In this document: positions 37,409 to 39,640 of the stretch, piece by piece
Layout: every line of letters starts with the position of its first letter
Position numbering within the stretch: position 1 is the first letter of the stretch
Assembly: GCA_903911085.1 (NCBI GenBank)
Contig: CAIWCC010000269.1
Coordinates: 41,149 to 105,148, forward strand
Length of the DNA: 64,000 nt
Direction: 5' to 3'
Source: an uncultured Bacteroidales bacterium
GTDB taxonomy: Bacteria > Bacteroidota > Bacteroidia > Bacteroidales > Paludibacteraceae
Notes under the pieces: generated by a model
Database searches by the model: none
What the model was told of the DNA's origin: nothing
The model's input: the letters and a program-made list of their open reading frames with translations, nothing else
Program-made: the position numbers and the translations under genes

Positions 37409-38506
37409 GTGAAAAAGACTAGGAGTCAGATTCTTATGTTTTGTTGTGTGTTGTTTTCTGTTGGTTGTGATAAAATCTTTAATGACTCATCTACATCTAA
37501 TTGGGAGCAATTGGGTAAATCTTTTGAAAGCATTATTTACAATGTAATTTCAGATAAAGATGGAAAGATTTATGTTTCTGGTGGAGATATTGGGAATGTG
37601 TCGGTATGGGATGGTGCAAACTGGAGCCAGTTAGGAAATGCTAGTGAAACATTTAGTGGCGGCGTTTATTGGCCTATAACAATTGATAATGCAGGCAATG
37701 TTTTTGCAGTTGGACGAATTAGAGTGCCTCAGGCAAATTCAACCTATAATGTAGCAAAATGGAACAAATCAACCAATACATGGATTAATCTTACAAGTGA
37801 TAAAGTGTTGTTCGATAATGGCATAGATGCAATAGCAACAGATGCTAATGGAAATCTGTATGTAGCTGGCAAAGCACAACATATTGCAGGAATAGAATCT
37901 GGTGCATATATTTATAAATGGAATGGAAGCACATGGAACATATTGGGAGCAAAGATGTTGGCTGGAAGTGAAATTCTGTTGTATATAGACAAATTAAATA
38001 ACATTTATTGTTCGTTTGGTATAAATGACAATGCGTCGCCATATATTGCAAAATGGAATGGAACCAGCTGGGATGAACTTGGTGGTAAAAATAGTGCAAA
38101 TTTTGGTATTGGTTATTTACTATGTATTAATTCTGATTCGCAAGGAAACGTATATGCAGGTGGATATTTTACCGATGGTTCCAAAGCTTATAACATATAT
38201 AAATGGACCAAAGCAAGCAATAAAACAAGTGCTATGTACACACATGGCAACTCTTTAGAAGCAAATTCAATTGCTTTTGATTCGGCAGATACACTTTATG
38301 TTGCAGGTGATTTTACAAACTCTATTGATAAACGATATATTGCTAAATATCATTTAGATAGAGATCAATGGAGCGATTATTGGAATTTGAATGCCAATGG
38401 CAAAATTAAATCAATTTGTTTTGATAAAAATGGAAATATGTATGCTGGAGGAGAATTTACCAATAGTGAAAAAAAATATTATGTAGCTGTGTATAAAAAG
38501 AAATAA
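37409..38506 (+). CDS. Beta-propeller-repeat lipoprotein (SBBP-like repeats)
   Basis: GTG start gives a classical lipoprotein signal MKKTRSQILMFCCVLFSVGC. Seven repeats of the form D-x-x-G-N-hydrophobic-Y-hydrophobic-x-G (DKDGKIYVSGG, DNAGNVFAVG, DANGNLYVAGK, DSQGNVYAGG, DSADTLYVAGD, DKNGNMYAGGE), plus W-N-G-S/T-W motifs. Confidence 0.65.
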   Translation: MKKTRSQILMFCCVLFSVGCDKIFNDSSTSNWEQLGKSFESIIYNVISDKDGKIYVSGGDIGNVSVWDGANWSQLGNASETFSGGVYWPITIDNAGNVFAVGRIRVPQANSTYNVAKWNKSTNTWINLTSDKVLFDNGIDAIATDANGNLYVAGKAQHIAGIESGAYIYKWNGSTWNILGAKMLAGSEILLYIDKLNNIYCSFGINDNASPYIAKWNGTSWDELGGKNSANFGIGYLLCINSDSQGNVYAGGYFTDGSKAYNIYKWTKASNKTSAMYTHGNSLEANSIAFDSADTLYVAGDFTNSIDKRYIAKYHLDRDQWSDYWNLNANGKIKSICFDKNGNMYAGGEFTNSEKKYYVAVYKKK

Positions 38507-38547
38507 ACTATTATTTGAATAAAATTCAATTTGATATTCGTATGCAA

Positions 38548-38590
38548 AAACACCCCGCTAAGTTATTATTTGGCGGGGTGTTTATTTATT
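38548..38590 (+). terminator. Rho-independent terminator
   Basis: AAACACCCCGC (38548-38558) pairs with GCGGGGTGTTT (38573-38583), followed by ATTTATTTTT. It lies 42 nt after the stop at 38506. Confidence 0.7.
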
Positions 38591-38591
38591 T

Positions 38592-38849
38592 TTAAAATAT
38601 TGTTGTCCGGTAAAAACAAAAGAAAAAATAATGTCGCTCCTAAGGAGCTCTGGTAATACTTGTAACTTATTGACTACCATAGTCTCGCTTCTCCGAAGCT
38701 ATTTATAAAAAGTCCCATCGGGACGAAATTATGGTAGAAAATATGCAAAAACAAAGTCTAAGCCCCATCGGGGCGAAATTATCTCAAAGCATTATTGGAA
38801 GCGGTTTTTCAGATGAAAATTAAAAGTTTATCGGACAACAATATTTAAA
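38592..38849. repeat. Multi-hairpin element bounded by inverted repeats (MITE-like or structured-RNA-like)
   Basis: Terminal inverted repeats 38592-38614 / 38827-38849 match at 21 of 23 positions, with a perfect 15-bp core AAATATTGTTGTCCG. An inner 7-bp pair CTACCAT (38674-38680) / ATGGTAG (38731-38737) is present. Four 5-bp-stem/3-nt-loop hairpins: GCTCC-TAA-GGAGC 38636-38648, GCTTC-TCC-GAAGC 38687-38699, GTCCC-ATC-GGGAC 38712-38724, GCCCC-ATC-GGGGC 38762-38774. Confidence 0.75.
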
Positions 38850-38872
38850 AAATTAAAAAGTTTTGATTGCAA

Positions 38873-39640
38873 TTATTTGTTGAAATTTCTCAACTTGATA
38901 TTGGTTAGCATTTTCTTAGTATGTAATGTGAAATCGCTATTCATCATCCAACCATAATAGCCCAAATCAGTTTTCAGTACATCAGTAACTTTTTTTCCTT
39001 TGTATTTTCCAAAATTAATGATTTCTTCACCTTTATCATTGTATATCATGCGTCCTGCAAAATCTACATTGTTGTTTTGTGCAGTAAATTTTGCTAAAAA
39101 CTCAATGTCGTTTTGAAGCTCAGGGTAGCGATCTAGTTGAGCTTCAAGTATTTCGTATGTAGCTAATGTGTCAGCTTCGGCACCATGTGCGCCAACCAAA
39201 TCTTTGCTGCAATAAAACTTGTATGCAGCTCCCAAAGTTCGAGCTTCCATTTTATGAAAAACCACTTGTACATCAACAAATTTCCGTTTTGTGAAATCAA
39301 TATCTACGTCAGCTCTCAATAATTCCTCTGCCAATACTGGGATGTCGAATCTATTTGAATTGTAACCAGCCAAATCGCAGCCTTCAATATCACGAGCTAT
39401 TTCTTTAGCAACTGCCTTAAATGTAGGACAATCCACAACATCCGCATCGTAAATTCCGTGAATTGCCGATGACTCTTCTGGAATGTGAATTTCTGGATTT
39501 ATTCTCATACTTTTAGTTTCTTGACGACCATTTGGAGATACCTTATGATAAGCTATTTCAACTATTCTGTCAGAAACAATATTTGTTCCAGTAGTTTCAA
39601 GATCGAAAAATACAATTGGGTTCTTTAATTTTAGTTTCAT
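38873..39640 (-). CDS. DnaQ-like DEDDh 3'-5' exonuclease domain protein
   Basis: Exo I IVFFDLETTGTN, Exo II GYNSNRFDIPVLAEE, Exo III HGAEADTLATYEI. 255 aa. Lies downstream of dnaN. Confidence 0.85.
   Translation of the reverse strand: MKLKLKNPIVFFDLETTGTNIVSDRIVEIAYHKVSPNGRQETKSMRINPEIHIPEESSAIHGIYDADVVDCPTFKAVAKEIARDIEGCDLAGYNSNRFDIPVLAEELLRADVDIDFTKRKFVDVQVVFHKMEARTLGAAYKFYCSKDLVGAHGAEADTLATYEILEAQLDRYPELQNDIEFLAKFTAQNNNVDFAGRMIYNDKGEEIINFGKYKGKKVTDVLKTDLGYYGWMMNSDFTLHTKKMLTNIKLRNFNK

Follow-up and report, generated by a model that had tools for sequence, protein, structure and literature searches.

A hairpin-rich intergenic repeat of Paludibacter is a probable miniature transposon with cargo homologous to the flanks of a Y1 transposase gene

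Within the 64,000-nucleotide stretch of DNA analysed here (the window), which comes from an uncultured Bacteroidales bacterium of the Paludibacteraceae, positions 38598–38843 hold an intergenic element dense in small hairpins. Our interpretation, to which we give a probability of roughly 0.8, is that this element is a non-autonomous DNA transposon, i.e. a transposable element of the miniature inverted-repeat type (MITE), which is mobilised by a DDE transposase and carries as cargo a cluster of hairpins homologous to those in the flanks of a Y1 transposase gene. The terminal inverted repeats (TIRs), the target-site duplication (TSD), the copy number and the intergenic sites show that it is a MITE of the TIR/TSD type. 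An earlier reading of this DNA (the original prediction) had offered a 'non-autonomous MITE/REP-like element' as one of two possibilities, and both halves of that phrase hold: the element is a MITE, and its hairpin units are homologous to Y1 flanks.

Copies, ends and target sites of the family

The window belongs to a Paludibacter metagenome-assembled genome (MAG) of 6.25 Mb in 269 contigs, which is 97.9% complete. BLASTN of the element against this genome gave 96 high-scoring segment pairs at roughly 60–70 loci; the element is thus multi-copy, and its copies show a 9 bp TSD, these being two of the properties that the original prediction had proposed to look for by such a search. Three subfamilies can be told apart, whose identity to the window copy is about 95, 85 and 76%. 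Many copies are cut off by contig ends, and the family therefore breaks the assembly.

Alignment of 31 full-length copies with their flanks placed the ends of the family at TATTGTTGTCCGGTAAA... and ...TTTAYCGGACAACAATA, with TIRs of 17–19 bp that are conserved across the copies. To locate the duplication, every offset and length of a direct repeat across the ends was tried in 40 two-ended copies. The sole register with signal was 9 bp long and began 2 nt outside TTGTTG. The duplication read in it is perfect in 15 of the 40 copies and deviates at no more than one position in 24, with mismatches at 0.19 per bp versus about 0.57 elsewhere. The duplications are AT-rich and all 40 copies are intergenic. 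Among the 26 copies with two callable neighbours the gap is convergent in ten, tandem in 13 and divergent in three, which is not significantly different from 1:2:1 (the convergent excess is not significant), and the orientation of the copies relative to gene direction (9:4) likewise has no significant bias.

TIRs combined with a duplication of fixed length are the mark that a DDE transposase leaves when it acts in trans, and 9 bp duplications are found in several insertion sequence (IS) families. A putative DDE transposase would act on the present family in trans by recognising the 17–19 bp TIRs, and cuts staggered by 9 bp in AT-rich intergenic DNA would leave the 9 bp duplication.

In the window, the same 31-copy alignment puts the ends of the element at 38598 (TATTGTTG...) and 38843 (...CAACAATA), giving a length of 246 bp. 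The original prediction had drawn the limits further out, at arms of 23 nt, which have 21 matching positions and a perfect core of 15 bp. The terminal inverted repeats are real, but the outer 6 nt of those arms are part of the A/T-rich target duplication. A repeat search returned outer inverted arms of 33 nt (38582–38614 and 38827–38859; 88% complementary), the inner inverted pair CTACCAT (38674–38680) and ATGGTAG (38731–38737), and a 23 nt direct repeat (38710–38732 and 38760–38782; 91%) whose copies differ by a paired T-A to C-G swap. The inverted repeats, the nested pair and the four hairpins of the original prediction are thus present, and its pair of near-duplicate hairpins with a swap that preserves pairing was recovered as well. 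The features are as follows.

38598–38843, no strand: MITE copy of subfamily A, 246 bp (ends from the 31-copy alignment; ~60–70 loci in its own genome)
38589–38597, no strand: left target-site duplication TTTTTAAAA (register test in 40 copies; 7/9 positions identical to the right duplication in the window copy)
38844–38852, no strand: right target-site duplication TTTAAAAAA (register test and sequence)
38598–38616, plus strand: left TIR TATTGTTGTCCGGTAAAAA, 'shell 1' (repeat search, copy alignment and TIR search)
38825–38843, minus strand: right TIR AGTTTATCGGACAACAATA (repeat search, copy alignment and TIR search)
38628–38782, no strand: four-unit hairpin module (the cargo), in the order <- <- -> ->; also present in a second MITE shell and in Y1 flanks
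38628–38648, minus strand: unit 1, tail ATAATGTC and hairpin GCTCC-TAA-GGAGC (38636–38648); read on the minus strand, the hairpin followed by GACATTAT
38674–38699, minus strand: unit 2, CTACCATAGTCTC and hairpin GCTTC-TCC-GAAGC (38687–38699)
38712–38737, plus strand: unit 3, hairpin GTCCC-ATC-GGGAC (38712–38724) and GAAATTATGGTAG
38762–38782, plus strand: unit 4, hairpin GCCCC-ATC-GGGGC (38762–38774) and GAAATTAT
38548–38583, plus strand: intrinsic terminator of the left gene, outside the element (16-pair stem and T-run; sub-threshold terminator-type Rfam look-alikes)

The hairpin module, its Y1 counterpart and its two shells

The module spans ~155 bp, and the interior of the element has no transposase remnant. 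The four hairpins of the module have 5 bp stems and 3 nt loops in the window copy. More generally, a unit is 21–26 nt long and consists of a GC-rich 5 bp stem, a loop of 3–4 nt and then the tail GAAATTAT; the inner units 2 and 3 extend into GGTAG, which units 1 and 4 do not have. The minus strand carries units 1 and 2 and the plus strand carries units 3 and 4, the tails pointing outward. The stems vary from copy to copy. Unit 1 has the compensatory variant GCCCC/GGGGC in subfamily B; unit 2 is also found with GTCCC/GGGAC, GCTCC/GGAGC and GTACC/GGTAC, and unit 3 with GCTGC/GCAGC, GCTCC/GGAGC, GTTCC/GGAAC and GCCTC/GAGGC; the third stem pair of unit 4 is UA in 53 cases and CG in 24, and one copy has GCCAC/GTGGC. 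Several modules of other Paludibacter assemblies (L145, L152, L176 and L191) have a small palindrome, TCCCGATAGCTATCGGGA, in place of the tail of unit 3 or 4; it has the look of a nested mini-insertion or of another kind of hairpin unit swapped in.

A census of units with a perfect stem and at most one mismatch in the tail counted 197 in the genome of the window, 170 of them inside MITE copies and 27 elsewhere, and 21 of these 27 form one tandem array beside a Y1 gene. In a collection-wide scan the 25 nt core motif was found in Paludibacter and Paludibacteraceae assemblies only. The unit motif is present in 29 of 102 genomes of the genus, and the genome of the window has the most by far (61 exact hits; controls 0–1).

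The Y1 gene beside the array (C203:291–752) encodes a protein of 153 residues that matches Pfam Y1_Tnp with 82.8 bits and has the motifs DHVH, SWQEGY and YIMDQEKHH, corresponding to DH[IV]H, WQ and Y---Q--HH. In NCBIfam, proteins of this type score above the cut-off of the IS200 equivalog, while REP_Tyr_transpos is absent or far below (34 versus 80 bits). Their closest relatives of solved structure in the PDB are the TnpA proteins of ISDra2 and IS608. TnpA_Y1 subclass 1.2 is defined by the motifs DH[IV]H, WQ and Y---Q--HH, with a length of about 148–150 residues, low copy number and occurrence in Bacteroidetes and Cyanobacteria (Quentin, Siguier, Chandler & Fichant, 2018, PMC6006769); judged by its motifs, the C203 gene carries the signatures of this subclass.

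The tandem array has a period of 52 bp and stops 5 nt short of the Y1 gene's start codon at C203:291, and on the 3' side of the gene there is one inverted, degenerate unit. The array, which runs from C133:9455–10016 into C203:1–283 (L043 and L053) and is split by a contig break, has at least 15 units of the form GCCTC-GTA-GAGGC-GATATTATGGTAG/GGTTG plus spacer, preceded by two inverted units. Orthologues of the gene (≥58% identity, in other Paludibacter species) have units of the same type within ~250 bp of the gene at nine of 11 loci in a strict motif scan. At loci with two assembled flanks, such as those of G103 and G086, the tails of the units face the Y1 gene, and several of the orthologue flanks are tandem arrays with various stems. 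In G030 and G108 a complete four-unit module, with the order and spacing of the MITE, lies directly upstream of the Y1 start codon. The Y1-adjacent units are without any shell TIR. At one locus in G086 (L054, on contig C308) the Y1 gene and its hairpin cassette are found between direct repeats of ~25 bp, TGATATGGAAAT[GT/AT]A[A/G]TCGAACAT, which extend into longer repeated flanks; this hints that the cassette lies within a duplicated segment.

The genome of the window has two other Y1 paralogues, each with its own, different hairpin repeats in the flanks, and these hairpins are confined to their genes and are not dispersed in the genome. More distant Y1 paralogues in other species have hairpins specific to their clade; the density of GC-rich perfect hairpins there is 4.6 per kb up to 220 bp from the genes and 0.8 per kb further out. 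The second paralogue (155 residues; L042, G000:C62:29348–31386) lies beside a gene resembling a type I restriction-modification methylase and is flanked by arrays of CTACAAAGATATTAGGGCTAACGCCCC, with six of the seven genome hits of this hairpin at the locus itself. The third (151 residues; L041, G000:C208:13144–16485) has ~600 bp of mixed palindromes on each side (GGGCTTTAGCCC, TTGGCTTTAGCCAA and CCTCCAGCTAAAGCTGGAGG), which are laid out as large direct repeats.

In most other species the module is bounded by a different TIR, GAAGTCGTCTTGACTTTTT ('shell 2'). The modules of shell 2 and of the window (~155 bp) are homologous in their spacers as well as in their hairpins. The duplication at shell 2 is 3 bp, perfect in 28 of 45 elements, and this is the only register with signal. 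The autonomous element with this TIR is an IS5-family IS that encodes a 287-residue DUF4096+DDE transposase. An intact copy is present in G097 (L221:1559–2422, 287 residues). In the genome of the window there are at least six copies, only as stubs of 90–150 bp at contig ends (the stubs are found at the ends of C3, C20, C76, C96, C105, C141, C147, C182, C204, C215, C222 and C223), and no contig of this assembly was found to continue into the interior of the IS. One chimeric copy of the MITE (L028, G000:C252:8364–8598) has a left third like the module in the IS5-type shell of other species, the rest being of the window type, subfamily A, which suggests recombination between the two module lineages.

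Conversely, the shell-1 TIR also bounds unrelated MITEs of 92–113 bp with perfect 9 bp TSDs in G020 and G108. Four loci are involved (L201–L204; G020:C42, C3 and C19, and G108:C1:1844940–1845180), and the interior of L204 is a perfect palindrome with 22 bp arms. The presence of the same module in a second shell, together with shell-1 TIRs around unrelated interiors, identifies the module as cargo and the TIR systems as a general chassis. The order of the units in the module, <- <- -> ->, is a circular permutation of the order in the gene flanks, -> -> gene <- <-; the module does not represent a Y1 element simply shortened by internal deletion. It may have been captured from the flanks of a Y1 gene, or it may share a common ancestry with them. 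Its dispersal would be the work of the DDE chassis and not of the Y1 enzyme, as argued by the occurrence of the same module in the unrelated second MITE shell of sister species; within the genome of the window the dispersed units are found only inside shells, and dispersal correlates with shells and not with Y1 genes.

Structural constraint on the units

The original prediction had taken the paired swap between its two near-duplicate hairpins as covariation. Compensatory changes were counted in 80 distinct modules from about 20 genomes, over hairpins 1, 2 and 4 and the long-range pairing; hairpin 3, whose 5' arm is shifted between families by MAFFT, was scored by direct enumeration. Of all cells 98.5% are paired, and nine pairs, comprising 51 cells, are changed on both sides, a level that is reached in none of 500 column shuffles (controls with a slid partner gave 1–4 pairs). 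The compensatory pairs are all within hairpins 1, 2 and 4, and hairpin 3 occurs as five perfectly paired stem types. The covariation thus stands for the small hairpins but not for the nested helix CTACCAT/ATGGTAG, which has none in the 80 sequences. The long-range 8 bp helix CTACCATA/TATGGTAG was rejected as a structure on the same count, with zero compensatory changes in the 80 modules; from the alignment it reads as a conserved motif in inverted copies, unsupported as a helix.

Substitutions from the consensus in the youngest subfamily, A (10 copies), number 3/400 in the stems, 8/420 in the tails, 8/380 in the TIRs, 6/120 in the loops and 35/1140 in the remainder (the spacers). The hairpins are kept as structures and the tails as sequence. 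Single mispairs, read in the orientation of the unit, are G.T in 20 cases versus A.C in three, and this holds for either half of the module; the pattern is as expected if every unit is recognised on the strand on which it lies, and not as expected of a single transcript, although the counts include related copies and are weak evidence. Each unit would be a putative single-stranded DNA (ssDNA) site for a Y1 protein, made up of hairpin plus tail, on the strand on which the tail is 3' of the hairpin, and we infer that the hairpins are most likely retained as such predicted sites. A further step, which we regard as tentative and on balance doubtful, is that the module is the cognate ssDNA substrate of subclass 1.2 that escaped its own inefficient enzyme by riding on at least two unrelated DDE shells (with 9 bp and 3 bp TSDs), the hairpins still being under selection through an action of the Y1 protein or of the host on every copy.

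Several points weigh against the reading of the element as a DDE-mobilised MITE with Y1-related cargo. The TSD of the window copy is imperfect, and no empty site for this copy was found among the available relatives, since among them only the right-hand neighbour gene is conserved (67–81% identity, with about 80% in the nearest) and the nearest are not syntenic on the left. The stem constraint was measured in a small set of 10 copies, which are related to one another, and the compensatory differences between subfamilies could have arisen by exchange of whole units with Y1 flanks and not by stepwise compensation. Dispersed modules and the cognate Y1 clade co-occur only in part: many modules but no orthologue at ≥58% identity are present in G089, G093, G025 and G028, which leaves a present-day dependence of the modules on the Y1 protein unproven. 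Finally, an autonomous IS with the shell-1 TIR was not found in the fragmented MAG of the window or in the five relatives searched, G108 (a complete genome), G110, G070, G020 and G027, and a search for TIR pairs in the genome of the window returned none.

The candidates considered as this parent IS were all rejected. An IS982-like transposase on C12 has a downstream region that ends ...GGACAACAAAT; in G108 this IS ends at ATGCGAATCAG, with a 5 bp TSD. The other PF01609 loci of the genome have different TIRs. An ISAs1-family parent had been guessed from the CAG... ends and TSDs of 8–10 bp, and the only copy, in G108, has the TIR CAGGGCTGACGCAT. Unpaired TIR hits in G108, G020 and G070, considered as possible IS ends, all pair with degenerate TIRs within 100–550 bp and are therefore MITEs. 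Directly after the IS982-like IS (TIR ATGCGAATCAG; 5 bp TSD in G108) there is a 300 bp stretch (L050, G000:C12:963–1260) dense in GC-rich hairpins, among them CCGCTTGGAGCGG, TCCCGATTAAACGGGA and GTCCCCAAAGGGAC.

Alternative explanations and known systems

A pure REPIN/BIME-type element would be moved as ssDNA by a Y1/HUH enzyme with no DDE transposase, the whole nested palindrome including the outer repeats being the mobile unit. This would account for the identity of the units with those in Y1 gene flanks, for an entire element that is a nested palindrome folding strongly on either strand and for the failure to find a DDE parent in the genome of the window or five relatives; some modules in other species are also without a recognisable shell (L130, L134 and L142). 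However, HUH-Y1 transposition of the IS200/IS605 type leaves no duplication, and the 9 bp TSD signal is sharp. The shell-1 TIR and TSD are also found around unrelated interiors, and the module is also found in an IS5-type shell with a 3 bp TSD whose autonomous IS exists. The confinement of dispersed units to shells and the lack of dispersal of the hairpins of the other two Y1 paralogues tell against it as well, and we consider this explanation improbable.

The element does resemble the known REP, BIME and REPIN elements and their RAYT (TnpA_REP) genes, or 'REPtrons' (Nunvar, 2010, PMC2817692; Bertels & Rainey, 2011, PMC3116915; Di Nocera, 2013, PMC3733652). Both systems have short hairpin units that are GC-rich, flanked by a conserved motif and grouped in clusters of alternating orientation; a small HUH-Y1 gene has such units, inverted relative to each other, on its two sides, and the hairpin is conserved as structure and the flank as sequence. 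The differences are that the partner here is a TnpA_Y1 of subclass 1.2 and not a class-2 RAYT; that GTAG adjoins the palindrome in REPs, whereas here GGTAG is 8 nt away from the stem on its 3' side and is confined to units 2 and 3; and that REPs and REPINs are naked singlets or doublets without TIR or TSD, whereas here 170 of the 197 units are inside TIR/TSD elements. The element thus behaves like a MITE, carries a cargo like a REP cluster and lacks three defining features of REP/RAYT systems. No report of GTAG REPs in Bacteroidetes was found in the literature searched. The PATEs derived from IS200/IS605 have left-end and right-end hairpins in the order of the gene flanks and no TIR or TSD, whereas here the order is permuted and both TIRs and TSD are present.

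Alternatively, the element could be an ordinary MITE with neutral leftover hairpins, the likeness to Y1 flanks having arisen from MITE copies that landed beside Y1 genes. Many genomes have modules but no cognate Y1 clade, as this would allow, and Bacteroidales MITEs with unrelated internal repeats do exist: BrickBuilt and MITE464/PgRS of Porphyromonas gingivalis have IS5-type TIRs and internal repeats (Klein et al., 2015, PMC4596501). Like the present element they are small and non-coding, with an interior that is repeat cargo and not a deleted transposase gene, and their TIRs match those of a resident IS family; they differ in their TIRs (GAGACC... and ACGTCAG...) and in their cargo, a tandem minisatellite of 23 or 41 nt with no HUH link described. 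The units that flank Y1 genes, however, have no shell TIR, were detected at nine of 11 orthologue loci, on both sides and with tails toward the gene where the two flanks are assembled, and often form tandem arrays with different stems. The Y1 paralogues with their own clade-specific hairpins, enriched near the gene (4.6 versus 0.8 per kb), also speak against it, and the stems are under-substituted and co-vary. We give this explanation a slim chance.

Folding of the element region is much stronger than that of dinucleotide shuffles, with z = −7.25 and −6.61 for the two strands, and a T-rich run follows both hairpin 2 (+) and hairpin 3 (−). A structured noncoding RNA (ncRNA) gene or cis-acting RNA element, selected at the RNA level and multi-copy by chance, could draw on these two observations, on the compensatory changes in three hairpins and on the 23 of 26 classifiable contexts that are downstream of genes, but this other reading of the original prediction ('small structured ncRNA') is very improbable: both strands fold equally well, the two halves of the module are 'correct' on opposite strands (G.T tolerance 20:3), which is impossible for one transcript, the long-range pairing has no covariation, the orientation relative to genes (9:4) is not significantly biased, the TSDs and TIRs indicate transposition, and the search of Rfam 15 gave no match inside 38598–38843 even at E ≤ 10, only terminator look-alikes at 38486–38600. 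As a side effect, the centre of the module could possibly act as a weak two-way terminator or insulator at its insertion site, which is speculative with 5 bp stems.

The window copy lies in a convergent gap, directly after the left gene's own terminator, as the original prediction had it. The left gene (37409–38506, plus strand) encodes a beta-propeller repeat protein, and its own strong terminator is at 38548–38583; the right gene (38873–39640, minus strand) encodes an RNase_T/ExoX-like exonuclease and is followed by dnaN. The only open reading frame (ORF) that overlaps an edge of the element, a TTG-start ORF of 41 residues at 38531–38656, spans the terminator and runs into the left end of the MITE; it is a chance frame of the kind that could end up in annotations as a tiny hypothetical protein.

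The classical bacterial MITEs, Correia/NEMIS, ERIC and RUP, are 100–300 bp long, with TIRs, a TSD, dozens to hundreds of intergenic copies and strongly folding transcripts. The present element resembles them in its size, TIRs, TSD, intergenic copy number and strong folding. It differs in that their TIRs and interior fold as one long hairpin and contain no module in common with the flank of an HUH gene. We know of no case of one interior in two unrelated TIR shells. Neither Y1-type hairpin clusters in MITEs nor hairpin partners of subclass 1.2 are described in the literature searched, nor is a single interior shared by two shells, and the statement in the original prediction that no functional description was known is fair for that literature. 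Subclass 1.2 is in fact classed as being without such hairpin structures (Quentin et al., 2018, PMC6006769), whereas the genes described here are flanked by clade-specific hairpin units.

The family accounts for a class of intergenic stretches in Bacteroidota that are rich in hairpins, break MAG assemblies and are liable to tiny-ORF annotation, and its TIR, 9 bp TSD and unit motif are usable for masking or as a strain marker in Paludibacter metagenomics. The packaging of Y1-type hairpin clusters by DDE systems is an added finding, and one conserved interior under two transposase systems makes a clean natural case in which to ask why MITEs retain cargo. The module is also a candidate DNA partner for the poorly understood Y1 subclass 1.2. 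Were it indeed an escaped substrate of that subclass, it would be a parasite of parasites.

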